Positions 659 through 35,894 are shown, counted from the stretch's first letter. The stretch is 64,000 nucleotides of DNA from an uncultured Candidatus Saccharibacteria bacterium (GCA_964360585.1 CAYHXC010000008.1:8-64007), one strand, 5' to 3'. The notes: generated by a model from the sequence alone, not told the origin. Numbers and translations: made by a program.

Positions 659-1819
659 ATGGCAAACAAAGCGCAGCAAAATCACTTTATAGCGGGGACC
701 CACAAGAAGCACTTTTGGGGCAAAGACTACGAATATCGGAGTTTTTTGCCGTCCCCGGTTAATCGCCCTTATGAATGGCAGGACAAAAGAATCCCCGTCC
801 TCTTGGAAGAAGCGATCAGACTTGTCGGTGAATTGAATGCCTACTCCATCCTTGTTCCAGATGTAGATTTTTTCATTCAAATGCACGTACGTAATGAAGC
901 AGTGAAGTCAAGTCGCATTGAAGGTACTCGCACCGGCATGGATGAAGCCGTCTTGCCGGAAGAAGAAATCTCTCCAGAAAAAAGAGACGATTGGACCGAG
1001 GTGCAAAATTATATAAAAGCAATGAATACAAGCATTGCTCGACTTAGCGAGCTCCCAATCTCAATGAGACTTCTGCAAGGAGCTCACAAAATTTTGTTGT
1101 CTGGTGTTCGTGGCGAACACAAACAGCCGGGAGAAGTTCGCACTGGGCAAAATTGGATTGGTGGCACAAGTATTCAGACGGCCGCTTTCATTCCACCTCA
1201 CCCCGAAGATATGGGAGAGGCCTTAAAGGACCTTGAGTTCTTTTGGCATAACAAAGGATTGAATATGCCTCATCTGATCAAGATGGCGATTTCTCATTAT
1301 CAGTTTGAGACAATTCACCCCTTCAATGATGGTAATGGAAGAATTGGTCGTATGCTGATCGGACTTCATCTTATTGAACTTGGAATTCTACGAAAACCAA
1401 CACTATACCTTTCTGACTTCTTTGAAAGAAACAAAGGAGCGTATTATGACGCGCTCACTTTTGTGCGTGAGCGAAACGATTTGGATCAATGGATTGTATT
1501 TTTTCTCTCGGCAGTCATTGAAACAGCTAAAAAAGGCAAGGACACATTTGAGAAGATTATTGATCTACGCGCTCGCTACGAGAAACAAATTATGGAGCTT
1601 GGACGTCGGGCAAAACTGGCTCATAAACTGTTGTTGCAATCATTCTCTATGCCGGCATTTAAGGTTTCTAATGCCTCTAAATATCTGAATGCCTCGAATA
1701 CGGCAACCAATACTCTTGTCGGAGAAATGGAACGTGTCGGAATTCTTAAAGAAGTAACCGGTTTTTCCCGTAACCGGATTTTTGTCTTGCACGAGTATCT
1801 GGAGCTCTTTAAGAGATAA
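659..1819 (+). CDS. Fic/Fido family protein (putative AMPylase/toxin-like)
   Basis: Canonical Fic motif [12 protein letters not shown] in a 386-aa ORF. Confidence 0.85.
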
Positions 1820-1908: not shown

Positions 1909-2481
1909 ATGATCATAACCATAAAAATTATCCTAATATTTATAGTCCCTTTAATTCTAAGTTTGGTCATTCGGTCAAGTCATCATCAAACATATGAATT
2001 TGTGAATAAGGAAAGCAAAAGAATGGTTGCACCTACGGTGCCATATCCTTATTTGTCAGGTTTGTTTTCGGATATACTGCTTCAAATTGGCATAAGTCCT
2101 TATAGTTTTTGCATAGAAAACAATTCTTTTTCAAAAGAATATTCTCTGCCCCATGACTTAGCTTTTAGATTAGAGGGTGAGGCTGAGTTTAGTAAAATTC
2201 ACTACAGCGAAAAAAAATGTATACCCATACTTAAAAAAGATGTTTTCTACGATGTGGCATGGGGTGGCTTTGTTATTCCTAATAAAGAATGGGCAGACAA
2301 GAATTTTAAATGCGATTCTGGAAAGTGTTCACTAAATTTTAAAGTTGATGAAATTGTGAACTTCAATGTTTATTCACGATTAAATTTTCCAGCACTAATT
2401 ATTGTGTATATCCTTTTAGTCGCCGCCGTGTTTGGATTTGTTAAGCTTGCTATTTCTTTATACACTTTCATCAGGCCGTAA
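1909..2481 (+). CDS. hypothetical membrane protein, markedly AT-rich
   Basis: 190-aa ORF with hydrophobic N- and C-terminal segments; A+T-rich codon usage unlike neighbours. Confidence 0.4.
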   Translation: MIITIKIILIFIVPLILSLVIRSSHHQTYEFVNKESKRMVAPTVPYPYLSGLFSDILLQIGISPYSFCIENNSFSKEYSLPHDLAFRLEGEAEFSKIHYSEKKCIPILKKDVFYDVAWGGFVIPNKEWADKNFKCDSGKCSLNFKVDEIVNFNVYSRLNFPALIIVYILLVAAVFGFVKLAISLYTFIRP

Positions 2482-2879: not shown

Positions 2880-3335
2880 ATGCACAGATTAGATACGGAA
2901 AAACAAATCTTTTTCTACGAGAATGAGTTCTATGTCTTCTCCAATTATTCTTCTTTCACCATCGAATGGAAAGGTAGCTTATATCCAACATCGGAACATG
3001 TATACCACTCTGAAAAATTTAATGACGAGAACCTAAAAGAGCAAGTGAGACTTGCGCGTTCAGCCCATGATTCGCAAAAGTTCGCGCAAGCGAATGTCGA
3101 TAAATACAGAAAGGATTGGAATCAAATTAGGATAGGTATTATGAAAGATATCCTTCTAGTAAAAGTTGAGCAACATCCCTACGTGAAGAAGAAGCTTCTG
3201 GAATCAGAAAACAAGGAACTTATTGAAGATTCCTGGCGAGATTCATTTTGGGGCTGGGGACCAAATAAAGATGGTGAGAATCGCCTTGGTAAGCTTTGGA
3301 TGGAAATCAGGAATGATTTTAGAAATAAGGAGTAG
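2880..3335 (+). CDS. NADAR domain protein (YbiA-like)
   Basis: YbiA-like conserved blocks: PTSEHvYHseKF and WGwGpnkdGeNRLGklWMEiR. Confidence 0.7.
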   Translation: MHRLDTEKQIFFYENEFYVFSNYSSFTIEWKGSLYPTSEHVYHSEKFNDENLKEQVRLARSAHDSQKFAQANVDKYRKDWNQIRIGIMKDILLVKVEQHPYVKKKLLESENKELIEDSWRDSFWGWGPNKDGENRLGKLWMEIRNDFRNKE

Positions 3336-3357: not shown

Positions 3358-3615
3358 ATGTCCGAAAAAGAAACGTTGCACAAAGTGCCAGTGGATTTAC
3401 GAAAAGCTCTTACTTCCAGCGCCGCGGCGCGAGCAGTATGGGAGGACATTACGCCACTGGCGCGCAATGAGTGGATTTGCTGGGTCATCTCCGGTAAAAA
3501 AATGGAAACGAGAGGTATCCGTATCGAGAAAGCGCTCTCAAAACTGAAAGGCGGCATGCGCCGGCCTTGTTGCTGGGTCGGCTGTGGACATCGTGGTTCG
3601 ACAAGCTCACCATAA
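3358..3615 (+). CDS. YdeI/OmdA-like small protein, copy 1
   Basis: 85 aa with ARNEWICWV...KKxETRxxRIxKAxSKLKGGMRRPCCWxGCGHR signature; one of three paralogs in the window. Confidence 0.6.
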   Translation: MSEKETLHKVPVDLRKALTSSAAARAVWEDITPLARNEWICWVISGKKMETRGIRIEKALSKLKGGMRRPCCWVGCGHRGSTSSP

Positions 3616-3854
3616 TTTTAGATTTTCCTGTTCTGTTGCAACTTATCTCGGTAGATAATGGAAACGAGCGCAAAACTGAGAATTAAGAGGAGGAACCAGG
3701 AGCCGATCTTATTGGCTGACGCACAAATCCAAAAAATCCTAGAACAACTTGAGAATCATGAAAAAAGTATAGCATCCTCGAAAAAAGAAAAAAGCCCGAT
3801 TACCACATGATGATGTGATAATCGGGCTCAAGTACTTTAGAACGGAATCACCTC

Positions 3855-4625
3855 TTAGCCTTCGATGAAGGCGGAGGCAACGAGCAGGTTTCGAAGTGAA
3901 ACCGGATCGTTCTTCGAGATGACGTGGAACTGAGGGATGAATTTGGCGACGTCCGCATGACCGCTTTCGATCTGCGCGATCACTTCGTCGGCCGCACGCC
4001 CCGTGCCTTCGACGAGCACTGTCGGCCAGCCGCGTCGTGCGGAGTGCATGATCTCATCTTTCGTGATAGGCCCGCCGTTCCAGGCGATGGTACCGAGAGC
4101 CTCGAAGCCGGCGTACGTCCTCCAGTGTTCCATCATGGTGAAGTAGGTGGGAACATCGAGGTCCCACTCTGCCTTACCGTCAGGACCATTCTGGACGATC
4201 AAGATGCCCAGCATGTCCGGATTTGGCACGGTTCCGTACTCGTCGAGCACGAGACGTGAGTCCTCCTGAAGTGAGAGCATGCTGGTGCGTGGACACGTGC
4301 CCAACGCGACACACCCCGGATTTTCCGAGGCGATCAGGCCCGGCACATCGGTGACCATCGGATCCACTTCGCCGTTCGCAACCTGACGCGTGCCGCCCGA
4401 CCAAGCCAGTCCTTCGAAACCTCGAAGAGCTTTCGAGAAAAACGAAAGCATTGCACGCTTGTCATCGGGTCCCATGCCTTTGCATCCGCCGAGGAAACGC
4501 AACGCCACCTTCTTTCGCGCGCGCGTACCCATGAGAGCGAATGCGGCGGGAAGACCATCGGTCGCATTCATCACGACCAGATGCACCTTCTCGCCATTCA
4601 CGTGATAAGGTCTCGTTCTATCCAT
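3855..4625 (-). CDS. divergent LOG/SLOG-superfamily Rossmann protein (paralog A)
   Basis: Glycine-rich motifs FLGGCKGMG, AWSGGTR and WNGGPITKDEI...VLVEGTGRAAD resemble the LOG GGGxGxMG / PGGxGTxEE pattern; compare canonical LOG at 48152. Start set at an internal ATG with a GGAGG SD. Confidence 0.5.
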   Translation of the reverse strand: MDRTRPYHVNGEKVHLVVMNATDGLPAAFALMGTRARKKVALRFLGGCKGMGPDDKRAMLSFFSKALRGFEGLAWSGGTRQVANGEVDPMVTDVPGLIASENPGCVALGTCPRTSMLSLQEDSRLVLDEYGTVPNPDMLGILIVQNGPDGKAEWDLDVPTYFTMMEHWRTYAGFEALGTIAWNGGPITKDEIMHSARRGWPTVLVEGTGRAADEVIAQIESGHADVAKFIPQFHVISKNDPVSLRNLLVASAFIEG

Positions 4626-4649
4626 TATTCCTCCTCCCATCGCTGGGTG

Positions 4650-5447
4650 TTATGTTCCGGTTCTTTCTACAAGCCGGAAACGTGACTCAGTTTTCGGCAC
4701 TATCGAAAGTTTCTCGAGTTGATGCCGAAGTGACATTTCCGTAAGTTCGGCAACGTGAACATGCGGATGCGCCAGAAGAAATTCTTTATCGTTTGCGTAG
4801 CGATCGGTCGTCCGACCACTACCGCGGATAAGAAGAACTGGCCACGCACGCTTTGCCCAAAGAAGAATTTCCTTTTCGGTAATACCTCCTCCGTTATAGG
4901 TGAGTAGAAGCGACCGCCACCCGCCACCATAGGTGACGAGATGCTGAACAATCTCTGCACACGTCTCATACTCCGTGTCCCAACAGCTCTTCTGATCAAC
5001 AGAAGCCTGCACGATGAGACACGTATCCTGATTCGGATGTGCAATGGTGAAGTAGGGATCTTCCGGATTATCCGCGACCACCAGTCCGTGTTGGGTGAGC
5101 TGAAGATCGCTTTGTCGTGCGACAACCCCGAGCGTGTATGAGTCGGGGCAGAGCTCACGAACAATGGGCGCAATCTCAGTAATGCCTAGAACAACCTTTG
5201 TGGGATCACTCCGGGAACGCATCTGTGTCCCTCCGAAGAGAACTGCTCCGCGGAAACCGCGAAACACATTCCCAAAAAGATTAAACATTCCTTGAGCATG
5301 CTCATCGGACATGAATCCACAACCGCCGGTCAGTCGAACAACGACAGTGTCTTTAGCCTTCGTGAGGCTAAGAGCCACCTTTACGGAAAGCTTTTCCCCC
5401 TCGTTTTCTATATACAAGGAGGGAACGTTTTTCACAGGAAAGCTCAT
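4650..5447 (-). CDS. divergent LOG/SLOG-superfamily Rossmann protein (paralog B)
   Basis: Paralog of previous (RLTGGCGFMSDEH, LFGGTQMRS, YNGGGITEKEI...LLIRGSGRTTD); strong SD aaggaggag upstream. Confidence 0.5.
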   Translation of the reverse strand: MSFPVKNVPSLYIENEGEKLSVKVALSLTKAKDTVVVRLTGGCGFMSDEHAQGMFNLFGNVFRGFRGAVLFGGTQMRSRSDPTKVVLGITEIAPIVRELCPDSYTLGVVARQSDLQLTQHGLVVADNPEDPYFTIAHPNQDTCLIVQASVDQKSCWDTEYETCAEIVQHLVTYGGGWRSLLLTYNGGGITEKEILLWAKRAWPVLLIRGSGRTTDRYANDKEFLLAHPHVHVAELTEMSLRHQLEKLSIVPKTESRFRLVERTGT

Positions 5448-5610
5448 GGATTCTCCTCCTTTTTTGATTCTGTTTTTTGAATTGTGAAGGGCTGAAACTA
5501 GGGCACATTATCATCTAATTTTAATGTATTGTCAATACCCTGGATATACACAACCCGCGCGGTAAGAAGCGTACGTTTACGTCTGTATATTTGTCCCGTA
5601 GAATGACCTC

Positions 5611-7545
5611 ATGACCCCTGAAAAACCACATGATGGTGAGGGAAATACAGAACGAGTAGAAAAATCACACCTTACCCCTCCCGCTCTCGAACTACTTCTT
5701 GACACAGGAGAAGCGGTTGTCTGGCCGGAAAAAATCAAAAACGATGTCGAGTTTGTAAAGCAACGAGAAGAACGGAAACAACTGATTAATAATTTGGAGC
5801 GAGTCACAGATCGATTACCTCGTCCTGATGTTTCTCTCCAAAACGCCGTAGCAGAAAAGATCATTAGTGAACCGGAAGTCGCTACTTTATATGAATCGCT
5901 ACAGAAACTCCTAGAAGACCCGGACTATGGGAGAGCTCTTCTCTATATTCCTTTTGAGTTCTTACCGAAATCAACGTGGAGTGCCGAAACAACGGAACTG
6001 AAAACGGCGATAACGGCATTCACGAATATCTATCTAAAAACATGGGAGAAACTTCTTCATTCACATGACGTACGAACAAATTTTGTTGATGGCGATATGA
6101 TCGAAATAGATTTTCGCGAAGGAGATGACTGGCCTCGTGTAGTCAAAGCAGCCCACCTTATACCACAACTTTTAGAGCACGATCTCATTACTACGGAACA
6201 GATATTCTCTCTGGCAGAAAAAACTAACGATACTCTTCTGAAGAGTACTATTGACGACGCATTGCTCGTAGCAGCAGATCTTGGTCGTCTCACTCCAGAG
6301 GATCGAGCCCGCATGCGATCGTCCAGCGATGAAGCTCTTCGAGGAACGGAAAAACTATTTGATGAACCCCTTGCAAACGAAAGCAACGTTACCGGACCAA
6401 TCGATTTTCAAGTGGTTGAGCAGGAGCTGAACACCACACTAGAGGAAGCCCGAACGGCCGACTACGGCTCCGTATCCCCCAACAGAAAAACCTGGCTGCA
6501 ACAGGAAAAACGACGACACCTCCTTGCAGCGGCCAGCCAGAAAATGTATCAGGCAATTGCTTCCAAACAACTTACTCCCGAGATTGGAAAAACATATATT
6601 GAAACCACCGGCAGTGCTATGGGAGAAGCTTGCATTGAAGGCATACGACAAGCAGTAGAAGCCGCTGTGGAAAAAGATCCAGGCAAGGGACAGCAACTCT
6701 TCGAGGAGTATCGCAATGTTATTACTACCGCTTGGAAAGAAAAACGAATTGAGACTCGGGATGCGTTAGGAAAACTATTTTTCCGCCTCAATACTCTCGG
6801 TGTTATCAATACTCAAGAACTAGAAACTCTGGGAATTGCTCGCCCAAATCTGGTTGGGCCATTTACAGAAAATCTGAAGTTCATGGAATCTGAAATGGGC
6901 GATGTGGATCGAATGTTGCGAGCGATCGAGAACAATCCAGGATTATCAGAACTCATTTATCCAGTAATTCTGATGCACGGGTCACGACTTAAGGGCTATA
7001 GCGCCGCCGAGTCTGATATCGACATCAGTATTATTGTTCGCCCCGAGGTGTCTGTCGAAGAACGCGAAAAGTTAGAGAAATTATTACAAGATGTATTTGC
7101 TCACGAAAAAATCCCTGAAAAAGTGATTGAATTTTGGCTCACCGAAAAAGACGGAAATCTATCCGTTCGGAATTTTGAAAAAAACGATCCTGCTTTAGGA
7201 GAATCCTCGTTTGTTCATATCTTATTCGGCGCCGTCTGGAAAGGCGATCCGAAAGTAGTTGAAGAATTACGAGAAAAATTACTAGTCCCCTATTTTTATC
7301 CGACTGAAGAAAAACTCTACGGCCGAGAGGCGCGAGATATTTATATTGAGCAGTTAGAGCGCGATGCTCTCCAATATCGACTCATGCACAAGGGTTATGA
7401 ACGATTCTTTCCGCGATTCGGAGGTGTCCGTTCGAAGCACGCTAACTTAATTGATGGTGAAAGTACTTTCTGGGACTCTGGGTATCGACAAACTGCCTTA
7501 CAGTTGTATGCCCGTCGAGTATTCTTGCCGAAACTGCAATCATAA
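5611..7545 (+). CDS. large protein with C-terminal Pol-beta-type nucleotidyltransferase (MNT/CD-NTase-like) domain
   Basis: hGS...GxxxxxSDxD NTase signature HGSRLKGYSAAESDIDISIIV in the last ~200 aa; ~430-aa N-terminal region of unknown function. Confidence 0.6.
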   Translation: MTPEKPHDGEGNTERVEKSHLTPPALELLLDTGEAVVWPEKIKNDVEFVKQREERKQLINNLERVTDRLPRPDVSLQNAVAEKIISEPEVATLYESLQKLLEDPDYGRALLYIPFEFLPKSTWSAETTELKTAITAFTNIYLKTWEKLLHSHDVRTNFVDGDMIEIDFREGDDWPRVVKAAHLIPQLLEHDLITTEQIFSLAEKTNDTLLKSTIDDALLVAADLGRLTPEDRARMRSSSDEALRGTEKLFDEPLANESNVTGPIDFQVVEQELNTTLEEARTADYGSVSPNRKTWLQQEKRRHLLAAASQKMYQAIASKQLTPEIGKTYIETTGSAMGEACIEGIRQAVEAAVEKDPGKGQQLFEEYRNVITTAWKEKRIETRDALGKLFFRLNTLGVINTQELETLGIARPNLVGPFTENLKFMESEMGDVDRMLRAIENNPGLSELIYPVILMHGSRLKGYSAAESDIDISIIVRPEVSVEEREKLEKLLQDVFAHEKIPEKVIEFWLTEKDGNLSVRNFEKNDPALGESSFVHILFGAVWKGDPKVVEELREKLLVPYFYPTEEKLYGREARDIYIEQLERDALQYRLMHKGYERFFPRFGGVRSKHANLIDGESTFWDSGYRQTALQLYARRVFLPKLQS

Positions 7546-7548
7546 AAA

Positions 7549-7583
7549 AAGCCGGACGATCACGAATGATTGTCCGGCTTAGG
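7549..7583. terminator. bidirectional rho-independent terminator
   Basis: aaaaaaaGCCGGACgatcacgaatgattGTCCGGCtta between convergent genes. Confidence 0.65.
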
Positions 7584-7610
7584 CTAACTACTAAAAAAGA
7601 ACTGTTGAGC

Positions 7611-8798
7611 CTAGAGACTGGTCTTGGCTTTGCCGCCGATGCCGGTGAGATCTCTTCCGCCATTGCGACGAACACCGCCACCGTCCAAGTGACTCCACGG
7701 AATCGCCACACCGAGCTGCCACAGCGCGGTGATGTAGGTGAGCTCCGTCTGGCCAACACTGACGTTCGGAAGCTCAATAACTCCCAGGGTGTAGCCCTTC
7801 AGACTCTGCTCGAGCCTGGGATAGTCTGATGAAACAGCCACTCCCAGCTGCTTGAGCATCTGATCGCGATTCAGTGCGCCGACCTGTGCCGGAAGACTCG
7901 GATTCTCCAGAGCCCTCCTGATCTGTTGAGCATCATAGGCCAATGCCATGGCCACGGGAATGCCCGTACCAGCAAAGATACCGTTGATGCTTGTGATCAC
8001 AGCTTCGGCTGCATCACGGAGACCGTCGGTGGGAGGCGGAGGCATCATTCCAGATGACAAACCTCCCGCCCCACCTGCCATACTGGCAAAGACGGCCATC
8101 ATGGTTGCTGGATTTGCCATTCCTTTCTGCCAGGAATCGATCCAGCCGACCAAGAGCTCTTGAAAAGAGATTAGGGACGGCCAAAGGTTGGTATCCATCT
8201 TGGCAAGCAGGGCTGTCTTGCGACTCTTCGTCGCGAAGCGGCCCGTTGGCCCTGGCATCGCCGCGAAGATCTCAGCATAGCTACGTTCGGTCAGGGTTCG
8301 CTGCATATCCCAGAACTCCGGACTGGCTGGTTCTTCGAGCGACTCGGCATTTCGCTCCATGGCAATGACGATCTTCTCAGGAAGGTCGTAGAGACCCACC
8401 CGATTGGCCAGCGCAGCACTCACGGTTCCAATGACCGTCTCGCGGTTGAACTTGAGAACTCCCCCAACCTTCAGGGCTGCGAGCCACGAAGTGTCGTCAG
8501 GAACGGGCGGCAGGACCCCCTCGAAGGAAATCCTTGCCATAGCAGCCGCGTCGGCCGGAGCGCTCACTGCCGGCTTCAGAGCCGCCAGCAGATTGCGAGC
8601 AGGAATTCGCTTCATCCCCGCTTCGATCAGATCGGCTTCGGTCAGTGCGCCGAGGTCTTCGACCTTGGTCACACCGAAGTCTTCCTTGATCTTGGCGATC
8701 ACATTCACGTCGGCGCCGTGCTCGATGAGCTTGGCGTCGACCGGATCCACTGGGGCTGGCTCTCCCGATGCTACGGGAGTGGTTTCCTCTGTTGTCAT
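7611..8798 (-). CDS. hypothetical protein (396 aa) with Gly/Pro-rich segment
   Basis: ORF trimmed to internal ATG (MTTEETTPV) preceded by AAGGAGAA; the longer form would overlap the upstream gene by >300 nt. Confidence 0.5.
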   Translation of the reverse strand: MTTEETTPVASGEPAPVDPVDAKLIEHGADVNVIAKIKEDFGVTKVEDLGALTEADLIEAGMKRIPARNLLAALKPAVSAPADAAAMARISFEGVLPPVPDDTSWLAALKVGGVLKFNRETVIGTVSAALANRVGLYDLPEKIVIAMERNAESLEEPASPEFWDMQRTLTERSYAEIFAAMPGPTGRFATKSRKTALLAKMDTNLWPSLISFQELLVGWIDSWQKGMANPATMMAVFASMAGGAGGLSSGMMPPPPTDGLRDAAEAVITSINGIFAGTGIPVAMALAYDAQQIRRALENPSLPAQVGALNRDQMLKQLGVAVSSDYPRLEQSLKGYTLGVIELPNVSVGQTELTYITALWQLGVAIPWSHLDGGGVRRNGGRDLTGIGGKAKTSL

Positions 8799-8808
8799 GC
8801 GCTTCTCC

Positions 8809-10197
8809 TTATCTGCAGAGTTTGTCCCGTTCAGTTGGGCCGAACGAAACCAGGCGAACGGGTATGCCCAGTTTCTGGCCAAGGATCCCCACACACAGAT
8901 CGTACAATATGTCACGATCGGCGGCAGGGGCGATATCAAAAGAGAATATCTCCGGCACGCAGTTTTGCAACTCGTGTCCAAGACATTCTTGAAAGGATAG
9001 TCGGGACAGATCCTCACCATGCCGCACACGCAATTCGCCGCTTGGCGTAAAATACGTAAAATCATCGGCACCTGAGTATCTGTCTGAGAGTGACCAGATT
9101 TTATTTTTCTGGATCTGATCAAACCAGGTTACGGCGAGACCGTCGAAGGCTTTAGTGCCGCCACACGCCTCGATGGCGTATCGCAACAACACCAGGTCGA
9201 GTGGACCCACTCGAGCTTTGCCTTGATAACGATTCTCTACCTTGTTGCTGCCCGGCAAGAGCTGCTCGCTCATGGCCGGATCAGCGGTTGGCATCGGTCC
9301 TGCTCCGTGGCGTATCTGATACGCCCGAGTGACGCCGATTTTTATCACCTCTCCACTGTATCCAGCTTCCTCGATCATCGCCCAAGTAAACTGAGGCAAC
9401 GTTCGAATGGCAGACACATGCGGATGAAAACCATAGTAGCGATCGGTGAGCACTCCGTGAGAACTCTCGACCACCACTACGCCATCACGATTAAGGATCT
9501 CTCGCCGGAGATAGTCTTGATCGACTATGTACACACGCTCCGCCGTTTCCCGAAAACGACTGACAACGTAATTCAGAAAACCATCATCTCCGAGGAGACT
9601 CAGTTCTTCCTGAACCACATCGCGGTCATCTTCTAGAAATGAACCCTCAATGATATGCACCAGATCACGACGAACGTATTCACGAATCGCCGCAATCTGA
9701 TCACGGAGGCAAGATCCCGAAAGATCTCGAGCGCGCACGGCGGTGTCAGGATAACGTTCGGCTTGCCGATACGCCTCGCCGACACCAGTACCAATCGTTC
9801 CGCGAGGATTATCCCCACGGGCCAGTTCTTTGATGCGAGAAGCGATGCCATGAAATGGCGTCGCACAGAGTGCATCTTCGTCGATAGTCAGAAGACCAAA
9901 GACTCCGTCGAGGCCACAGGCAAATTGCAACTGGGTCCCTTCGTTTAAGATACCTTCCGGCGTAACGACGAAGCGAGACGAAAGATGCGTCCTCGCTCCT
10001 TCGAAGGTGCCGCACCCCCACTGACTGAACGCGAAGCGATCGCCAGCTGAGGTTTGTACACCGTGACTTCCTTGAGCACCGCCAACTTTGATGATGGTGT
10101 GTGCTCGTCGCATCGAACTGATCTTGTGAATAATTCCACCCTTACCACCGTCACCAGGACCAAGGTCCGTGACGGTGTACAGCTTTTTTGTTGCCAT
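8809..10197 (-). CDS. adenylosuccinate synthetase (PurA) family homolog, divergent
   Basis: N-terminal GDGGKGG (PurA GDEGKGK P-loop) and VGGAQGSHG (PurA GGxNAGHT) blocks, plus PurA-like length; start set at MATKKLYTV. Confidence 0.6.
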   Translation of the reverse strand: MATKKLYTVTDLGPGDGGKGGIIHKISSMRRAHTIIKVGGAQGSHGVQTSAGDRFAFSQWGCGTFEGARTHLSSRFVVTPEGILNEGTQLQFACGLDGVFGLLTIDEDALCATPFHGIASRIKELARGDNPRGTIGTGVGEAYRQAERYPDTAVRARDLSGSCLRDQIAAIREYVRRDLVHIIEGSFLEDDRDVVQEELSLLGDDGFLNYVVSRFRETAERVYIVDQDYLRREILNRDGVVVVESSHGVLTDRYYGFHPHVSAIRTLPQFTWAMIEEAGYSGEVIKIGVTRAYQIRHGAGPMPTADPAMSEQLLPGSNKVENRYQGKARVGPLDLVLLRYAIEACGGTKAFDGLAVTWFDQIQKNKIWSLSDRYSGADDFTYFTPSGELRVRHGEDLSRLSFQECLGHELQNCVPEIFSFDIAPAADRDILYDLCVGILGQKLGIPVRLVSFGPTERDKLCR

Positions 10198-10233
10198 ACC
10201 ATCACGTCCTTGATCCTGGTTGAGGGTCAACCC

Positions 10234-11367
10234 TTAGAGCCAACCGCCGTCGGGCTTGGTAGCAGTAGATTTACCCTTCTTCTTCGACAAACCGCCAAGT
10301 TCGGCGGCTTCGTCCGCATTGACCGGCCAGAGGTCGGTTTTGGTGTGGAAGATGTCACCTTTCTTTGGCTGCCTGTTGAAGTTCGGTAACGCTTTCTGCG
10401 CCCCGAGTGGAATGCTCGAAACCGCACTTAGAATCATCGCCACCTCTCTCTCTGTCAGATTCTGATGACCCAGGAAATCCTTGGCCGATCGAAGATCCAA
10501 CGTTCCTTCCGTGAGACCGATGATCGTGGCCATCGCGTACGGAGCGTGCTGGACTCGAGACAGACGGATGAGTCGATCCTTTCCGTAGAGATCCCGCCAG
10601 AAAGCGGGAGCACCCGGATTGGGATCGACGATCAGGATGAAGATGTGCGCTTGCTTCGTCAGCTCACGCACGACGTCCCGTGTTTCGGGAAGGTCGCGCG
10701 GATCAATCTCGTAACCGTTCTCTTTGACCTTGTCGAACACCTCAGATCCGTAGATCTGCTTCAGAGCGGCCGCCTCCAGTCTTTCGCGTGCCGGCGCATC
10801 GGTGATCGTGAAGTCGTACGACTTCAGACCAATCAGCCGTTGGTAGGCGCGGGTCAAGTAGGCAGCCCCGAAAAGTCCGTAGTGCGGATCTTCGGGTATG
10901 TCGCCGCCTTGTCGGATCGGGTTCATCAGAGTCAGCTGATTGACCATCCGATCGGCCAGCACTTCGAACTGTCCACGACACATGATGAATTGGTCGTCGA
11001 CATCATTGAAGACACCCGCACAGTAGAACGGATCTCGTCCAGAAAGCACTTCGGCGACGGGCTCGCACAATGCCGGCAAAGCCGCCAAGGCCAAGTCCAC
11101 ATTGTCGCCCATCGACGATGTCGTATCGAGACGATACTCGATCGAAACTGGCGAACCGACAGCGACCTCGAAGAGGCCGTCCGATCGGTCGAGGAGACGA
11201 ATCCGCGAAGGACGGATGACCCCGTACTGAGCTGGATCAACCAGCGGGTCGAGCTTGCCGGTTTTCTTGACCGTTTGCTCCCCACGCACGGTTACTGCAG
11301 CTCCCCTGGTCGTCAGCTTTGACGTCGTTTCCTCGAATGTAGTTCTCGAAAAACCACCTTTGGCCAT
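10234..11367 (-). CDS. vWA-like domain protein (TerY-like)
   Basis: Putative MIDAS-like D-T-T-S-S-M after a hydrophobic strand; start at M3 with GAGGAG SD. Confidence 0.4.
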   Translation of the reverse strand: MAKGGFSRTTFEETTSKLTTRGAAVTVRGEQTVKKTGKLDPLVDPAQYGVIRPSRIRLLDRSDGLFEVAVGSPVSIEYRLDTTSSMGDNVDLALAALPALCEPVAEVLSGRDPFYCAGVFNDVDDQFIMCRGQFEVLADRMVNQLTLMNPIRQGGDIPEDPHYGLFGAAYLTRAYQRLIGLKSYDFTITDAPARERLEAAALKQIYGSEVFDKVKENGYEIDPRDLPETRDVVRELTKQAHIFILIVDPNPGAPAFWRDLYGKDRLIRLSRVQHAPYAMATIIGLTEGTLDLRSAKDFLGHQNLTEREVAMILSAVSSIPLGAQKALPNFNRQPKKGDIFHTKTDLWPVNADEAAELGGLSKKKGKSTATKPDGGWL

Positions 11368-11379
11368 GTGCATTCTCCT

Positions 11380-12198
11380 CTAAAGCGGTAGGGTGGTGAA
11401 AGGATAAAATCCCCTCTCCCACAGTTGATCAACGAGTTCGTAGAAGTCCCGATGGGCTTCCTGAGCACTACGATGACCGTTCTCTCGAAGGACCATCAGG
11501 TACTCACTGTACTGATCGAACTCTTTACTTCCGTCTCCCGGAATGCCTCCTTCATCTGTGCCGCCCAAAACTGCAAAAACAGTTTGGGCTGCGGCCTTCA
11601 CCTCCTCAGACGCATCGATCCGAGTCACACCGTCGGGGTGTCGCTGGGCGTTTCCCCAGTTGAACACCAAAACGCCATGCTGGCTTGGTTCGATGAGAAC
11701 GTTGCCTGGAGTGATCTGGTTAATGGTGATGTCTGCGCCATGTGCGAAAGCGACAATCTTCAGAAGTTTGCCTAGGATCCAAACGCTGGACCGAAGGTCA
11801 ACCCTCTGTTGGTCTCGGTGCACAACGTTGTGCAAGGGCACCATTCTCCGTGTGTCGTCGATGTTCCTGAAGGCAAGCACATTGGCCCGCCGCTCCCCCT
11901 GTTCGGTCAGCAAGAAGCTGTCGACTAGGGCAGGAAAACCGAGCTCATAGTGGAGTTTACTCTCCGGGTTGGTCTTGATCTTGGTATACATCTCTTCCAA
12001 CTCACCAGCTCGCGCCAAAAGTTGTTCGAGAAAATACGCTCCGCGATCAAGCATGCCATTCTGAGCAACATCCGTTGCCACTTGCAGTAACTGCCCTTGA
12101 CCGTCCCCCTCTGGCGAGCAAAGGTACAAACGGTACTCGGGTGTTTCTGCGACACGATCGCCAACATGGTACATACGTGAACCATTTCTAACGATCAT
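11380..12198 (-). CDS. protein kinase-like fold protein, divergent (possible pseudokinase)
   Basis: Catalytic-loop-like HGADITINQITPGNVLIEP (cf HRDLKPxNIL) and VHRD, but no clear DFG Asp; strong SD GGAGGTG. Confidence 0.35.
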   Translation of the reverse strand: MIVRNGSRMYHVGDRVAETPEYRLYLCSPEGDGQGQLLQVATDVAQNGMLDRGAYFLEQLLARAGELEEMYTKIKTNPESKLHYELGFPALVDSFLLTEQGERRANVLAFRNIDDTRRMVPLHNVVHRDQQRVDLRSSVWILGKLLKIVAFAHGADITINQITPGNVLIEPSQHGVLVFNWGNAQRHPDGVTRIDASEEVKAAAQTVFAVLGGTDEGGIPGDGSKEFDQYSEYLMVLRENGHRSAQEAHRDFYELVDQLWERGFYPFTTLPL

Positions 12199-12362
12199 AA
12201 CTCTCTCACCTCCTATCCTTTCTTGATACTTGGTTAACTGAACTAAAATAAGTTATCAAAGGGCACCTCCGGTCGAAAATCCCATAAATACAGGATTCCG
12301 GCGGATGTTGCATTTAAGTATAAATTGTTCCTTTTGTCAATATTTTCTGCCATCAAGATTTC

Positions 12363-12596
12363 TTGAATCATTGTAGTTTGGTGAGCAGTTCATCGGAACA
12401 AATCCTACTGAACCGAGGCGCCGCGGCACGAGCAGTATGGGAAGACATGACGCCCCTCGCCCGCAACGAATGGATCTGTTGGATTATTTCCGGTAAAAAA
12501 ATGGAAACGAGAGGTATCCGTATCGAGAAAGCGCTCTCTAAACTGAAAGGCGGCATGCGCCGGCCTTGTTGCTGGGTCGGCTGTGGACATCGTTAA
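12363..12596 (+). pseudogene. YdeI/OmdA-like paralog, copy 2, N-terminally diverged or truncated
   Basis: Shares the C-terminal 60 aa and a ~107-bp near-identical nucleotide block with copy 1; lacks the HKVPxDLRKAL N-terminus and only a TTG/GTG start is available. Confidence 0.4.
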
Positions 12597-12696
12597 CAGG
12601 TAGACACCACCATATTTTCACAAGTAATTGCCGGAACAATACTTGACCTTTCTTATTTTTTACGTTATTTAAATCTTAGACTAAAGGAGAAGTCTT

Positions 12697-13053
12697 TTGA
12701 GAACATTAACAAAAAGTACACCGACCACAGCGACTCCATGGACCAAAGCAATCCGGCAAACCCGAGATCATGACAACCGTCTGTCTCTTATCCAAGAGAT
12801 GCCCATCGTGGCGTGGTTTTCGAAAATAAGAGGCCGGATACATCGATTGATCAAAGTAAGAGCGCGACTCGGAGACAATGCGTGGATTATCGTCGATGCG
12901 CAAGGGTTCTTTGGAACGTTGTCGCCTACCACCCTGGATGCCTGTCTGCGCACTCTTACCGCTGAAAATGGGTGGGTACTCTGCGAGTTCACAAGCGAGG
13001 CTGACTTTTACAGGACTGCACTCGCTTATCTTGAAGAGGCACGCACAGATTGA
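12697..13053 (+). CDS. hypothetical protein (118 aa)
   Basis: TTG start 6 nt after AAGGAG; terminator follows. Confidence 0.35.
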   Translation: MRTLTKSTPTTATPWTKAIRQTRDHDNRLSLIQEMPIVAWFSKIRGRIHRLIKVRARLGDNAWIIVDAQGFFGTLSPTTLDACLRTLTAENGWVLCEFTSEADFYRTALAYLEEARTD

Positions 13054-13065
13054 CTTCAATTATAC

Positions 13066-13104
13066 CGTCTCACCTTTACAGGTGCGGCGGTTTTTTATTT
13101 TTTG
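13066..13104 (+). terminator. rho-independent terminator
   Basis: Hairpin CACCTttacAGGTG followed by cggcgg and a T-run. Confidence 0.5.
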
Positions 13105-13204
13105 TCCCAAGAAAAAGCCGCTGGAGCCGCATATGTTGACACTCAGCTATTTATAGTGCATTTTCTAGGCAGCAGATATAGGAATCCTTGAGAGGAGGGT
13201 TGTT

Positions 13205-13759
13205 ATGCCCATCTACTTGCCGAAACAGATTGAGCCGCTCACGCCGACGGTTGATTCCCCACTATTTTTTCTGGCCGGACCGATTCGTGGAGGCGGCGAC
13301 TGGCAGTCTCACATGGCTGTCTGTATCCTCGATCGAGAACCATCGGCACTCATTGCTTGCCCGTCACGATGGGGTAGCAATCATCGGCTGGCGCATCACT
13401 TCTATCGGCCATACTCACAAGCAAACAACCGACAGCTCGTGTGGGAACGCCACTACCTCAAGCAGGCTGGGCTTGAACCGAATGTGCCAGGCTGTATTAT
13501 CTTCTGGCTCGGCCTTGAAAGCACGCGGGATCCTCATCCGGGTCCTCAACCATATGCGATGGACACCCGACGCGAACTGGGGAAATTCACTGCCTTCGCG
13601 GAAATGATGAACGTTCGCATGGTGGTCGGCGGCAACCGCGGCTTCCATGGACTCGGAGTCATCCTCTTCGAACTGAGCGAGGCCATCGGAAAAACCTTTC
13701 CGTTCCACGAAACAATGGAAGATGTCGTTACTCATGCAGTGGCAACTGCCCAACGGTAG
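13205..13759 (+). CDS. nucleoside 2-deoxyribosyltransferase-like (NDT/Rcl-like) protein
   Basis: N-terminal FFLAGPIRGGGDW resembles the NDT-family YLAGP glycine-rich motif; strong SD gagaggaggg. Confidence 0.5.
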   Translation: MPIYLPKQIEPLTPTVDSPLFFLAGPIRGGGDWQSHMAVCILDREPSALIACPSRWGSNHRLAHHFYRPYSQANNRQLVWERHYLKQAGLEPNVPGCIIFWLGLESTRDPHPGPQPYAMDTRRELGKFTAFAEMMNVRMVVGGNRGFHGLGVILFELSEAIGKTFPFHETMEDVVTHAVATAQR

Positions 13760-13765
13760 ACGAAC

Positions 13766-13802
13766 ACCCGCCCCTCTTCAATGATCGGGCGGTTTTTATT
13801 TC
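13766..13802 (+). terminator. rho-independent terminator
   Basis: CCCGCCCctcttcaatgatcGGGCGG + TTTTTATTT. Confidence 0.6.
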
Positions 13803-13888
13803 TTCAAAAAAGTCTCGCGCCGAGAGTAGAACCGAATCCCCTGTTTGTTTTGTAGTATTTAGAATCCTAATTAATGTAAAATAAAAGT

Positions 13889-14131
13889 ATGGTCAGAAAA
13901 GGAATAGTACATAAAGTGCCGGCGGACTTACGCAAAGCTCTGATTGCAACACCCGCGGCGCGAGCAGTATGGGAGGATATTACGCCTTTAGCGCGCAACG
14001 AATGGATCTGCTGGGTCATATCTGGCAAAAAAGCGGAAACGAGAATTATCCGTATCAAAAAGGCACTCTCAAAACTAAAAGGCGGCATGCGCCGACCGTG
14101 CTGCTGGGCCGGTTGCGGTCATAGAAAATAA
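13889..14131 (+). CDS. YdeI/OmdA-like small protein, copy 3
   Basis: 80 aa with the same signature as copy 1; more diverged at nucleotide level. Confidence 0.6.
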   Translation: MVRKGIVHKVPADLRKALIATPAARAVWEDITPLARNEWICWVISGKKAETRIIRIKKALSKLKGGMRRPCCWAGCGHRK

Positions 14132-14310: not shown

Positions 14311-14474
14311 TTTTATTTTGTGATAAAAAAAATAATAAAAATGAAGAAATATTTTTCTTACTTCTTGGGCGGCATAGCAATCCTAGCACTGTCTCACGCT
14401 ATTGAGCCATTACGGCTGGTTGACAAAAGAAGGAATTGTGTTTAATTTGTGGTCAGAACATAAAGGAGAAGTAT

Positions 14475-15020
14475 ATGCGTCATGCGCTGGTCGAATCATA
14501 TGTCCGACAGCTCCGCTCATCGCTTCAGGCGACAGCAGTGCCAGTCGAGGAAGATATGTTGCGATCTTTGTATGACCGTCGGAGTTATGGCGGTCTGGTT
14601 GGTGTGATCAAAAAAATCATGCACCTGGAATTGCGAATCCGCCTGGGTCTCGTAAATAATGGAGGACCTAATGCGCCGGCCTGGGTTCAATGCCCGGACC
14701 CGATGCCTCTCTATGGAAGCTCGGAATTTTGCAAGATAGAGGTACCGCTCTATCTGAGGAAAAGCTTCTTGAGAGAAGTTGAGTTCGAGCAGGTGGTGTG
14801 CGCGATCGCTCACGAACTCGCCCATGTGGTGTTACATAGCCTGCGCCATCCTCTCAGAACCGAGGAAGAGGCGGTGGATCTCACGGCGATGCTCCTGGGA
14901 TTTCGGGACTTCTATATGACCGGGTGCGTTCAATCGTTCAGAGGCCATGTCGTGTACCAGCAGGGATATCTCTCAGAAAAAGAGATTTGTTACGCTGCGC
15001 ACTACATGACATTTAGATAA
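14475..15020 (+). CDS. putative HExxH zinc metallopeptidase-like protein
   Basis: AIAHELAHVV motif; start at ATG after AAAGGAGAAG. Confidence 0.45.
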   Translation: MRHALVESYVRQLRSSLQATAVPVEEDMLRSLYDRRSYGGLVGVIKKIMHLELRIRLGLVNNGGPNAPAWVQCPDPMPLYGSSEFCKIEVPLYLRKSFLREVEFEQVVCAIAHELAHVVLHSLRHPLRTEEEAVDLTAMLLGFRDFYMTGCVQSFRGHVVYQQGYLSEKEICYAAHYMTFR

Positions 15021-19174: not shown

Positions 19175-19342
19175 CTAGAACCCATCTCAAAAATAGAATC
19201 ACGCAGTCTTCCGGCTAGATTCGGCTATAAACCCACCCGACCCTCCTTGAAATACCATAGGGTATTCCTGTCTCGGGTCGGATGGTTCTCGCTCGAATCT
19301 ATCACGGAATACCCCTGTGCCTATTTTTGAGATGGGTTCTAG
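19175..19342. mobile_element. MITE-like palindromic element, copy A (168 bp, 21-bp perfect TIRs CTAGAACCCATCTCAAAAATA)
   Basis: Perfect terminal inverted repeats, long imperfect internal palindrome, no coding capacity. Confidence 0.7.
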
Positions 19343-35726: not shown

Positions 35727-35894
35727 CTAGAATCCATCTCAAAAATAGGCACAGGGGTATTCCGTGATAGATTCGAGCGAGAACCATCCGACCCGAGACA
35801 GGAATACCCTATGGTATTTCAAGGAGGGTCGGGTGGGTTTATAGCCGAATCTAGCCGGAAGACTGCGTGATTCTATTTTTGAGATGGGTTCTAG
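35727..35894. mobile_element. MITE-like element, copy B; reverse complement of copy A with one mismatch
   Basis: 168/168 bp alignment to the reverse complement of 19175-19342 with 1 substitution; lies 52 bp upstream of the giant gene start codon. Confidence 0.7.

Follow-up and report, generated by a model that had tools for sequence, protein, structure and literature searches.

An undescribed five-gene module around a divergent PurA-like protein in Candidatus Saccharibacteria and other Patescibacteria, with a possible link to NAD metabolism

Introduction

One of the described systems closest to the locus reported here is adenylosuccinate synthetase (PurA), together with its recruited homologs, e.g. 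PurZ of phages. In PurA of E. coli we take Asp13 and His41 to be catalytic, Asp333 to be guanine-specific, and Thr300/Thr301 together with Arg303/Arg305 to form the aspartate site. The IMP ligands of this enzyme are presumably Asn38, Thr129, Arg143' and Gln224, with Thr129 and Arg143 among the ligands of the 5'-phosphate. MntA, from the HEPN-MNT toxin-antitoxin system, and GlnE transfer a nucleotide to a hydroxyl group. SARM1 is an NAD sensor and NADase with the architecture ARM-SAM-SAM-TIR. The TerY-P triad, said to have been described by Anantharaman, Iyer and Aravind in 2012, reportedly consists of the vWA protein TerY, a Ser/Thr kinase and a PP2C phosphatase.

NrtR regulons of NAD metabolism were reported by Rodionov et al. 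(2008, PMC2330246); most NrtR sites have a GT-N7-AC core and 21-bp symmetry, and nrtR-draG loci of Streptomyces are mentioned in the same paper. Regulators of the NrtR family also run regulons outside NAD metabolism, e.g. those of arabinose and xylose utilisation (PMC2330246, PMC4666351). A word search of PMC2330246 found no mention of adenylosuccinate, and the searchable literature yielded no NrtR regulon of Patescibacteria. For the LSDAT SLOG and NADAR families, which tend to co-occur, binding or processing of NAD and ADP-ribose derivatives is predicted, and both have been tied to NAD/ADP-ribose conflicts (PMC9503650).

The locus lies in an uncultured Candidatus Saccharibacteria bacterium (GCA_964360585.1, CAYHXC010000008.1:8-64007). 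The whole stretch analysed, 64,000 nt in length, is referred to below as the window.

Extent and distribution of the module

The original prediction regarded the segment 3358-14131 (10.8 kb), bracketed by three YdeI/OmdA-like genes, as one undescribed, nucleotide-centred system. Comparison with orthologous loci reduces the unit to five genes, as only 5611-12198 of the flagged span is conserved elsewhere. The sample, collected around homologs of the PurA-like protein, comprised 87 loci (81 non-redundant) from Patescibacteria-type MAGs. The genes for the kinase-like, vWA, PurA-like, SAM/HhH and nucleotidyltransferase proteins have the same order and orientation in 61 of the 87 fetched loci; the remaining loci are mostly truncated contigs or partial versions, or have no recognisable fourth gene. 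MAGs bearing the module are labelled as Saccharibacteria, several Parcubacteria groups, Daviesbacteria and Peribacteria. The features of the module in the window are:

12312..12340, minus strand: candidate sigma-70 promoter of the operon (TTGACA, 17 nt, TTAAAT), from reading of the sequence
11380..12198, minus strand: gene 1, 272-aa putative kinase-fold protein (profile match to CK2-alpha)
10234..11367, minus strand: gene 2, 377-aa vWA-domain protein with N- and C-terminal extensions (MIDAS-like D-x-T-x-S, LDTTSSMG)
8809..10197, minus strand: gene 3, 462-aa PurA-like protein (Pfam Adenylsucc_synt, E = 7e-32)
7611..8798, minus strand: gene 4, 395-aa protein with N-terminal SAM/HhH-like domain and orphan C-terminal domain (SAM_TNK/HHH_5 matches in orthologs)
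5611..7545, plus strand: gene 5, 644-aa protein with N-terminal ARM/HEAT-like alpha-solenoid and C-terminal MNT-type Pol-beta nucleotidyltransferase (Pfam, structure model)

Genes 1 to 4 are tightly spaced and form one operon, with gaps in the window of 3 nt (counted to a TTG start of the ORF; 36 nt if the called ATG is used), 6 nt and 10 nt. Gene 5 is convergent to this operon. Of the 8-mers upstream of the kinase-like gene, TTGACAA shows the strongest enrichment across loci; the candidate promoter is not listed by a stricter promoter scan. Membrane segments number zero in all five module proteins.

A pattern scan of 185,579 species genomes found the PurA-like family in only 126 stretches, so the module is not universal in the phylum. 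Flanking families other than the five each recur in at most 13 of the 81 non-redundant loci. No paper describing the five-gene module was found in a literature search. The five-gene cluster is an undescribed, nucleotide-centred gene set, and to this extent the original prediction fits.

The flagged segment further contains the following genes outside the module:

3358-3615, plus strand: OmdA/YdeI-like copy 1 (Pfam OmdA, E = 5e-16)
3855-4640, minus strand: LSDAT_prok SLOG paralog 1 (Pfam PF18171, E = 7e-9, 35.7 bits, cut-off 25.4)
4650-5447, minus strand: LSDAT_prok SLOG paralog 2 (Pfam PF18171, E = 7e-8, 32.5 bits, cut-off 25.4)
12363-12596: OmdA/YdeI-like copy 2, N-terminally truncated (Pfam OmdA, E = 1e-12)
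13889-14131: OmdA/YdeI-like copy 3 (Pfam OmdA, E = 1e-18)

Pfam and other profile searches agree with the majority of the domains originally proposed (three OmdA, two SLOG, Pol-beta, PurA, vWA and, by weaker matches, a kinase fold). The three OmdA genes were found at the predicted coordinates, as direct repeats with 71-79% DNA identity. The two tandem LOG/SLOG paralogs both score above the Pfam cut-off as LSDAT_prok and are mutually 30% identical (E = 1e-33). Fic and NADAR genes adjoin the segment, and the neighbours of the module in the window include members of the prokaryotic LSDAT SLOG and NADAR families of ADP-ribose-processing genes. A 184-aa protein had been called NDT-like, a name that the searches do not confirm: it has no match in Pfam, NCBIfam or the PDB, and shares only the motif FLAGP with a genuine Nuc_deoxyri_tr2 protein (BLASTP E = 0.12).

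The SLOG pair, OmdA, Fic, NADAR, 118-aa and 184-aa genes stand beside the module only in window-identical contigs, and the other contigs with this arrangement are from the same strain (99.995% identity). Co-conservation of the predicted gene set therefore extends to the five genes and not to the SLOG pair, OmdA or the other genes. The proposed trio of PurA-like, SLOG and nucleotidyltransferase genes is not conserved as a neighbourhood, the SLOG pair being absent from all 81 non-redundant orthologous loci. These genes are strain-specific neighbours outside the module. The NADAR and SLOG neighbours share an ADP-ribose theme with the module, a thematic link confined to this strain.

Features of the encoded proteins

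The PurA-like protein was predicted to be a divergent adenylosuccinate synthetase homolog, and the profile scores agree: it passes the superfamily-level Pfam model (111 bits against a cut-off of 27), but falls far below the equivalog cut-off of TIGR00184 (70.9 bits against 395.55). Its orthologs are 42-74% identical, and their tree follows taxonomy for the most part. By sequence it shares fold and family with PurA and recruited homologs. In a profile-to-PDB alignment it keeps the P-loop as GDGGKGG (PurA: GDEGKGK), an invariant Asp corresponds to Asp13 of PurA, His45 to His41 and Asp360 to Asp333. The retained fold, P-loop, catalytic and guanine-specific residues probably indicate O-phosphorylation driven by an NTP, with an amine then displacing the phosphate. 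The substrate positions differ from those of PurA. At the IMP ligands, Asn38 is replaced by Gln, Thr129 by Ile and Gln224 by an invariant His, while the Arg143 position is variable. In the aspartate site, Thr300 is replaced by a near-invariant Tyr, Thr301 by an invariant Gln and Arg303 by Lys; the equivalent of Arg305 is kept. The position of Lys331 is occupied by Trp. To judge from these alignments, the protein is probably a ligase that uses GTP and in which the acceptor and amine pocket has been remodelled. The gene context also differs from that of PurA, with vWA, pseudokinase-like and SAM-like genes in the operon and no lyase partner nearby. The gene was found on three IMG/VR contigs; one of these 'viral' contigs is 408 kb long and probably cellular.

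For the product of gene 1, originally predicted to be kinase-like, a profile of 40 orthologs matches the catalytic-loop/DWG region of CK2-alpha over about 45 residues (E = 1.5e-4), the only match in the PDB. Kinase models of PADLOC (PD-T4-6, PglW) and NCBIfam are matched weakly. The gene is syntenic in 78 of the 87 loci. The position of the beta3 Lys is Gln in 25 of the 40 sequences, the alignment of these orthologs has no conserved HRD Asp in the catalytic loop, and the DFG-equivalent Asp is retained in 28, with Asn in the protein of the window. The gene 1 product is probably a pseudokinase, as read from these motifs.

The gene 2 product is a true vWA protein, as had been proposed, with a Rossmann-like vWA fold in a high-confidence structure model. 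D83-x-T85-x-S87 is invariant in sets of 43 and 55 sequences and corresponds to the MIDAS motif D-x-S-x-S with the first Ser replaced by Thr, i.e. a predicted metal site. The module resembles the TerY-P triad in that a MIDAS-bearing vWA protein is encoded beside a putative kinase-fold protein. It differs in the lack of PP2C, beta3 Lys, HRD Asp and Ter genes and in the presence of a PurA-like enzyme. A PP2C gene was found neither in the window nor in the annotated ortholog contexts, and the kinase-like protein lacks catalytic residues, so the suggested TerY-P-type switch was not borne out.

The 396-aa protein of the original prediction is the 395-aa product of gene 4. Among 36 orthologs, SAM_TNK matches 27 and HHH_5 matches 12. 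In 1.84 billion proteins the family forms about 310 clusters at 50% identity, and the length is mostly about 400 aa among the 150 clusters listed. In five loci the N-terminus is retained and the body is swapped for an unrelated sequence of about 340 aa.

Gene 5 encodes a solenoid of about 440 aa, a nucleotidyltransferase core and a C-terminal helical extension of about 150 aa. High-confidence models predict the MNT fold and, for the N-terminal region singled out for structure prediction, an ARM/HEAT-like alpha-solenoid. The core has the alpha-beta-alpha-beta-alpha-beta fold and a conserved G-S-x(9-13)-D-x-D catalytic motif. Its best nucleotidyltransferase match is HI0073 at the sequence level and MntA (5yep) at the structure level; NCBIfam MntA_antitoxin is matched at E = 3e-5 and PADLOC PDC-S09 weakly (E = 9.6e-4). 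The original assignment to a C-terminal Pol-beta domain of CD-NTase type stands for Pol-beta, according to Pfam, and gives way to the MNT type for the rest. No CD-NTase/SMODS family occurs in the Pfam, PADLOC or NCBIfam output or among the structural matches listed. The CD-NTase type was rejected, as what the domain matches are generic Pol-beta and minimal (MNT) nucleotidyltransferases. The G-S...D-x-D core is common to MntA, HI0073 and GlnE-type protein adenylyltransferases, from which the gene 5 enzyme differs by its fusion to a solenoid and a helical extension and by the lack of a HEPN partner. An ARM-like solenoid and a SAM-like domain in an NAD-linked context also recall SARM1. In the module these domains are on separate proteins and there is no TIR, and Foldseek matches of the solenoid to the SARM1 ARM domain are weak (probability 0.15-0.3); the resemblance is no evidence of homology or shared mechanism.

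Genomic context and putative operator

NrtR, with the architecture Nudix plus winged-helix, is encoded beside the module in 13 loci (about a sixth), at three or more distinct positions around it, some of the genomes being related, so that neither these counts nor those of the operator below are fully independent. Like NrtR, the other neighbours that recur belong to NAD salvage: an ADP-ribosylglycohydrolase (8 loci), PncA (6), NAPRTase (PncB; 6), NadE (5), NadD (5) and the NAD-dependent DNA ligase LigA (5), and one locus has a NadD-NadK fusion. In annotated contexts the module lies between nrtR, pncA, pncB, nadD, nadE and prs. Beside the module the Preiss-Handler pathway has all its steps, leaving no gap that the module genes would have to fill.

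In 18 of 72 loci, only a quarter, the palindrome TTAGTGT-N7-ACACTAA (at most 2 mismatches) precedes the kinase-like gene at a distance of 126-239 nt; shuffled controls average 0.17, with 2 as the highest value. In this upstream region it is about 25 times as dense as over the loci as a whole. It also precedes nrtR, pncA, nadD, nadE, ADP-ribosylglycohydrolase and nucleotidyltransferase genes. This 21-bp palindrome carries the GT-N7-AC core and 21-bp symmetry of NrtR-type operators and is a putative binding site in the ortholog operons. The adjacent nrtR and the operator shared with pncA, nadD, nadE and nrtR resemble the NrtR regulons of NAD metabolism (PMC2330246), and the loci with a draG-like ADP-ribosylglycohydrolase neighbour resemble the nrtR-draG loci of Streptomyces. 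Control would also differ from that of PurA, since the operator of the ortholog operons is NrtR-type and not a purine one. The copy in the window differs from these regulons: no match with up to 3 mismatches was found near the candidate promoter, and no NAD salvage or nrtR gene is present across all 64 kb.

Discussion

Several sources annotate the PurA-like protein as adenylosuccinate synthetase, and it might simply be the enzyme of this lineage for IMP, Asp and GTP, with operon partners that are unrelated or merely regulatory. The retained P-loop, catalytic Asp/His and guanine-specific Asp are in line with this, as are the 42-74% identity among orthologs and the retention of the gene in MAGs of host-associated Saccharibacteria, bacteria that are sustained by salvaged nucleotides (bioRxiv 10.64898/2026.06.21.733656). 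This is unlikely, given a score of 71 bits against a 395-bit equivalog cut-off, near-invariant replacements of Thr129, Gln224 and Thr300/Thr301, and the variable Arg143 position. Adenylosuccinate lyase occurs in no annotated context, the vWA, kinase-fold and SAM-like genes nearly always flank the PurA-like gene (3-10 nt apart in the window), and the upstream operator is common to NAD genes rather than purine genes.

A vWA/kinase-like sensor could instead act with the PurA-like enzyme and the nucleotidyltransferase to make or alter a nucleotide that serves as signal or toxin, in an anti-phage or conflict system that in this strain would share an accessory island with SLOG, NADAR and Fic. Conflict systems often contain vWA, kinase-fold and Pol-beta nucleotidyltransferase domains, the PD-T4-6, PglW and PDC-S09 models are weakly matched, and NADAR and SLOG have the conflict associations cited above (PMC9503650). 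The module flanks vary among genomes, the distribution over species is patchy, and three IMG/VR contigs carry the PurA-like gene. We nevertheless consider such a role improbable. No PADLOC-DB v2 match lies below E = 1e-4 (best 1.2e-4, PD-T4-6, kinase region) and no system is assembled, the module has no recognisable effector (nuclease, pore, TIR, Sir2), and one of the three 'viral' contigs is probably cellular. The sequences are well conserved with a largely taxon-coherent tree, i.e. neither rapidly diversifying nor freely transferred, and elsewhere the module lies within operons of NAD salvage and shares their putative regulator. Only in this strain are SLOG, NADAR and Fic genes associated with it. 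That the whole OmdA-bracketed segment is one co-functioning or mobile unit is very improbable and largely refuted: three OmdA paralogs in direct repeat bound the span and break it up, the GC content of the window peaks between 7 and 12 kb, and the NADAR/SLOG neighbours suit an ADP-ribose theme, but no non-core gene recurs beside the module in the 81 non-redundant loci, the OmdA copies share just 71-79% identity, inverted repeats, an integrase and a tRNA are all lacking nearby, and the arrangement recurs only in same-strain contigs.

We see about an even chance that the module is an undescribed NAD/ADP-ribose-linked enzyme complex, and not a defence island, with a GTP-dependent ligase at its core whose acceptor pocket is unlike that of PurA. 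Counting against this explanation are the lack of operator and NAD genes in the window, the minority of loci that have the box or nrtR, the NrtR-family regulons outside NAD metabolism, the complete Preiss-Handler pathway, the limited distribution of the family, and the annotated genome tables of Southlakia epibionticum, which contain no adenylosuccinate synthetase entry. Complex formation, the use of GTP and the substrate of the PurA-like enzyme are what we infer here. The module would belong to an ADP-ribose-responsive NrtR regulon and be switched on during NAD consumption. The four operon products would form one complex, with the PurA-like enzyme as catalytic core; the vWA and SAM-like proteins and the putative kinase-fold protein, which is catalytically degenerate, would serve as scaffold or regulators. 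By analogy with PurA, GTP would phosphorylate a substrate oxygen and an amine would then displace the phosphate. As the GTP site and catalytic Asp/His are kept and the IMP 5'-phosphate and aspartate residues are replaced, another nucleotide substrate is expected, probably one related to NAD or ADP-ribose, rather than IMP plus aspartate. The solenoid-nucleotidyltransferase may transfer a nucleotide onto a hydroxyl, either on a partner protein or on the product, and thereby tune the system.

Gene content and operon structure

The window was mapped from the ORF listing together with Pfam, NCBIfam and PADLOC scans, and the domain calls that the original prediction had made from raw sequence proved to be largely right.

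Genes of the region, with window coordinates and strand
659-1819, plus strand, Fic
1909-2481, plus strand, 190-aa membrane-like ORF
2880-3335, plus strand, NADAR
3358-3615, plus strand, OmdA copy 1
3855-4640 and 4650-5447, minus strand, two LSDAT_prok SLOG proteins
5611-7545, plus strand, 644-aa protein with a Pol-beta nucleotidyltransferase domain at the C-terminus
7611-8798, minus strand, 395-aa protein with a weak SAM-like N-terminus
8809-10197, minus strand, PurA-like protein
10234-11367, minus strand, 377-aa (vWA) protein without Pfam match
11380-12198, minus strand, 272-aa (kinase-like) protein with weak kinase matches only
12363-12596, plus strand, OmdA copy 2, truncated
12697-13053, plus strand, 118-aa ORF
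13205-13759, plus strand, 184-aa ORF
13889-14131, plus strand, OmdA copy 3

The four minus-strand genes from 12198 to 7611 are regarded as one operon because they lie only 3-10 nt apart by ORF coordinates; from the vWA stop to the called PurA-like ATG the distance is 36 nt. The nucleotidyltransferase gene is convergent with this operon. A candidate promoter, TTGACA-17-TTAAAT, is located upstream of the operon, with the truncated OmdA copy directly beyond it. The TTGACAA 8-mer enriched at this position was considered as a regulator site and rejected, as it is the -35 box. No riboswitch was recognised in the operon leader by an Rfam search at E values of up to 1, and none of the five module proteins contains a membrane segment.

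Just beyond OmdA copy 3 is a 194-aa ORF (14436-15020) with an HExxH-type motif and weak Peptidase_M78/DUF2201_N matches, which adjoins DUF817 and SPFH/Band 7 genes. Further along the window, a 168-nt inverted repeat (98.8% identical) is present in two intergenic copies, 19175-19342 and 35727-35894, the second just upstream of where a giant ORF of 2580 aa begins (27933-35675, minus strand).

Extent, distribution and inheritance of the module

The exact PurA-like sequence was also found on Hainich groundwater contigs from the 0.1-µm filter fraction. Over 20 kb, one of them (L001) matches the window at 99.995% identity and was rejected as a strain variant of the arrangement, being the same sequence. 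Homologs at 60-74% identity are mostly named as Patescibacteria MAG proteins. An alignment of PurA-like homologs (A1) was scanned against one genome per GTDB species, which provided 80 loci with flanks of up to 10 kb on each side. All 18 window proteins were then searched by tblastn against the 87 fetched loci. Matches were present for the PurA-like protein in 87/87, the vWA-like protein in 85/87, the nucleotidyltransferase in 81/87, the kinase-like protein in 78/87 and the 395-aa protein in 75/87. The order kinase-like, vWA, PurA-like, 395-aa, followed by the convergent nucleotidyltransferase, is the same in 61 of the 87 loci; the remainder are mostly truncated contigs or have no recognisable fourth gene. 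The SLOGs, OmdA, Fic, NADAR and the 118-aa and 184-aa proteins matched only three or four contigs that duplicate the window, and all-against-all clustering of 1,415 flanking ORFs placed no other flanking family in more than 13 of the 81 non-redundant loci. From the conserved order and the non-recurring flanks, the real unit is therefore 5611-12198. The proposal that the entire 10.8-kb OmdA-bracketed segment acts as one unit was thus essentially refuted.

An OmdA-bracketed single unit or mobile element was also rejected on other grounds, since the full OmdA copies are only 71-79% identical to each other, no inverted repeats, tRNA or Rfam matches were found with them, and conservation in other loci does not extend to the non-core genes. 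Between copies 1 and 2 a core of 176 nt (3419-3594 and 12418-12593) is 92% identical, which suggests partial gene conversion, and a 37-nt OmdA-like fragment follows copy 1 at 3632-3668.

The loci are labelled as Saccharibacteria, Falkow-, Uhr-, Moran-, Wildermuth- and Daviesbacteria, Peribacteria, Paceibacterota and Minisyncoccia. Several MAG records have implausible, non-Patescibacteria names: Gammaproteobacteria (L008, L013, L018, L023, L049, L055), Fibrobacteres (L009), Fimivivens (L020) and Omnitrophota (L022). In the tree their modules fall within Patescibacteria, and L008 is the same locus as L090, with NAD neighbours that are Patescibacteria-like; these labels are probably wrong, or the contigs mis-binned. 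A tree built from PurA-like sequences by neighbour joining groups host-associated Saccharibacteria, environmental Saccharibacteria and Peribacteria largely by taxon, which points to mainly vertical inheritance with some transfer. No recognisable ortholog was found in the Tn-seq and annotation tables of Southlakia epibionticum. A scan of IMG/VR detected the PurA-like gene on three contigs classed as viral (L091-L093). At least one of these is 408 kb long and likely cellular DNA, and the matches make no case for a phage origin of the module.

Proteins of the module

The PurA-like protein is a clear homolog of its Pfam family (E = 7e-32), scoring 71 bits against an equivalog cut-off of 395. In a profile-to-PDB alignment its P-loop GDGGKGG is retained, and so are residues equivalent to Asp13 and His41 (catalytic) and Asp333 (guanine-specific). 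Replaced are Asn38 by Gln, Thr129 by Ile, Gln224 by His, Thr300/Thr301 by Tyr-Gln, Arg303 by Lys and Lys331 by Trp, most of the replacement residues being invariant or near-invariant within the family; the Arg143 position is variable. Residue roles are those assigned in E. coli PurA. From these alignments we read the protein as an active GTP-dependent ligase with acceptor and amine sites unlike those of PurA.

The vWA protein nearly escaped sequence comparison, as its profile gave no match in the PDB and VWA_4 was detected weakly in 2 of 43 members; its assignment as a vWA domain was settled by structure prediction. The residues D83-x-T85-x-S87 are invariant. The kinase-like ortholog profile matches the catalytic-loop/DWG segment of CK2-alpha. 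The beta3 Lys and HRD Asp are missing, and in the window protein the DFG Asp is also gone; most likely this is a pseudokinase, or else a kinase of very atypical type. The vWA C-terminus (10234-10242) has an invariant Trp and a near-invariant Leu, and that of the kinase-like protein (11380-11406) a conserved FYPFTT tail. Both tails may be docking peptides for complex assembly.

The N-terminus of the 395-aa protein carries a SAM/HhH-like domain in 27 of 36 orthologs. Its C-terminal domain is an orphan, with nothing meaningful in a PDB profile search, and exhaustive phmmer among 1.84 billion proteins recovered only its own narrow family of about 310 clusters at 50% identity. In five loci (L006:11377-12405, L017:11401-12411, L028:11420-12505, L041:11352-12389 and L052:11408-12385) the fourth gene keeps the N-terminus on an unrelated body of about 340 aa without family match; the SAM/HhH-like N-terminal ~70 residues were detected by tblastn in L006, L017 and L028.

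The nucleotidyltransferase conserves the G-S...D-x-D motif and is not CD-NTase-like, contrary to its original designation. Its N-terminal region (5611-6930) gave generic solenoid matches only. Weak Foldseek matches of the solenoid to the SARM1 ARM domain bound to NAD or NMN (7anw, 7lcz; probability 0.15-0.3) were too weak to be used as an identification. An ARM-like solenoid with a SAM-like domain encoded by the adjacent gene is reminiscent of the domain composition of SARM1 and is treated as a lead only.

NAD gene neighbourhood and a common operator

Recurrent flanking families were annotated with Pfam and NCBIfam.

Families beside the module, with number of loci
NrtR (Nudix + NrtR winged helix), 13
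ADP-ribosylglycohydrolase, 8
PncA, 6
NAPRTase, 6
NadE, 5
NadD, 5
NAD-dependent DNA ligase, 5
Nudix, 3

In three annotated contexts the module lies amid salvage-pathway genes.

Gene contexts, with the module between slashes
L006: nrtR / module / pncA, nadD-nadK, nudix, pncB, nadE
L088: pncB, pncA, ARH / module / nrtR, nadE, nadD
L089: nrtR / module / nadD, pncB, prs, nadE

Next to the module at L006:15890-17290, NaMN adenylyltransferase (NadD) and NAD kinase are fused in a single 466-aa protein. The position of nrtR varies by locus (upstream of the operon, beyond the nucleotidyltransferase, or several kb off), and its association with the module is therefore not a single inherited arrangement.

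A palindrome search across the nrtR-bearing loci gave TTAGTGT-N7-ACACTAA as common to them, which fits the 21-bp symmetry and GT-N7-AC core of most NrtR sites (PMC2330246). In 18 of 72 loci this box, with up to 2 mismatches, precedes the kinase-like gene by 126-239 nt; several of these loci have no nrtR in the fetched flanks. Shuffled upstream regions gave a mean count of 0.17 and a maximum of 2. It is also found upstream of nrtR, pncA, nadD, nadE, ADP-ribosylglycohydrolase and nucleotidyltransferase genes. Since ADP-ribose releases NrtR repressors (PMC2330246), the module is predicted to be induced together with NAD salvage during NAD breakdown. In one locus (L054:11445-11465) the PurA-like and fourth genes of the module are separated by a box with 1 mismatch, which hints at an internal regulated promoter in that genome.

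The window copy of the module is atypical. Its operon lacks the box, the lone 3-mismatch match in the 64 kb being elsewhere and at chance level, and no NAD salvage gene or nrtR was found within the window. NADAR and SLOG families are tied to ADP-ribose processing and tend to co-occur (PMC9503650); as the window flanks contain NADAR and two SLOGs, the ADP-ribose theme persists there, though the genes differ.

Interpretation

The proposed mechanism builds on what is established here: conserved synteny of five genes, the folds and motifs of their products, repeated association with NAD genes and a common operator. The operon products would form a complex around the GTP-dependent ligase, the substrate of which would be a non-IMP nucleotide, probably NAD- or ADP-ribose-related. 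The vWA, pseudokinase and SAM parts would serve as scaffold or regulators, and the solenoid-nucleotidyltransferase, in analogy to MntA and GlnE, would modify either a partner or the product. Since the Preiss-Handler pathway adjoining the module is already complete, the module would add something and fill no known gap.

The PurA-like protein could instead be a plain housekeeping adenylosuccinate synthetase. This reading is weakened because substrate residues are changed, the lyase is missing, the operon partners are fixed and the context is NrtR and not purine. Defence, as first suggested for the segment, is weakened as well: the ten proteins scanned with PADLOC gave no matches beyond weak, domain-level ones, there is no effector, the PurA-like tree is taxon-coherent and the module is embedded in metabolic genes. 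Gene sets combining vWA, kinase-like and nucleotidyltransferase proteins should not be taken as defence systems by default.

An unlikely extension of the NAD-linked mechanism, to which we give a small chance, is that Patescibacteria recycle or repair NAD by means of this module, as a machine not known before. The PurA-like protein would then activate an NAD-derived nucleotide with GTP and couple it to a nitrogen nucleophile. For example, the anomeric oxygen of ADP-ribose might be activated and nicotinamide or nicotinate added to yield NAD or NaAD; alternatively, deaminated NAD might be re-aminated. Control of the enzyme in response to ADP-ribose levels would fall to the vWA, pseudokinase and SAM subunits together with the solenoid-nucleotidyltransferase. 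If true, this would be a new NAD-economy route in organisms unable to make their own nucleotides.

No description of this gene set was found in the searchable literature, the listed vWA-like homologs are without Pfam domain and all given names are 'hypothetical protein', and at least three of the five module proteins have no match to a curated family. We rate the module as outside any described system, its function being read from gene context. Much of bacterial diversity belongs to the Patescibacteria, which depend on scavenging for their building blocks and whose genomes contain numerous genes without a known function. Here a compact five-gene module recurs in fixed order in genomes labelled as several of their lineages, and comparative genomics supplies a testable handle, namely NAD salvage and the ADP-ribose-sensing NrtR regulon. 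Action of the PurA-like protein on an NAD-derived substrate, if true, would be a new reaction type in NAD metabolism and a second recruitment of PurA to non-canonical nucleotide chemistry, after phage PurZ, and would bear on the upkeep of the NAD pool in reduced cells.
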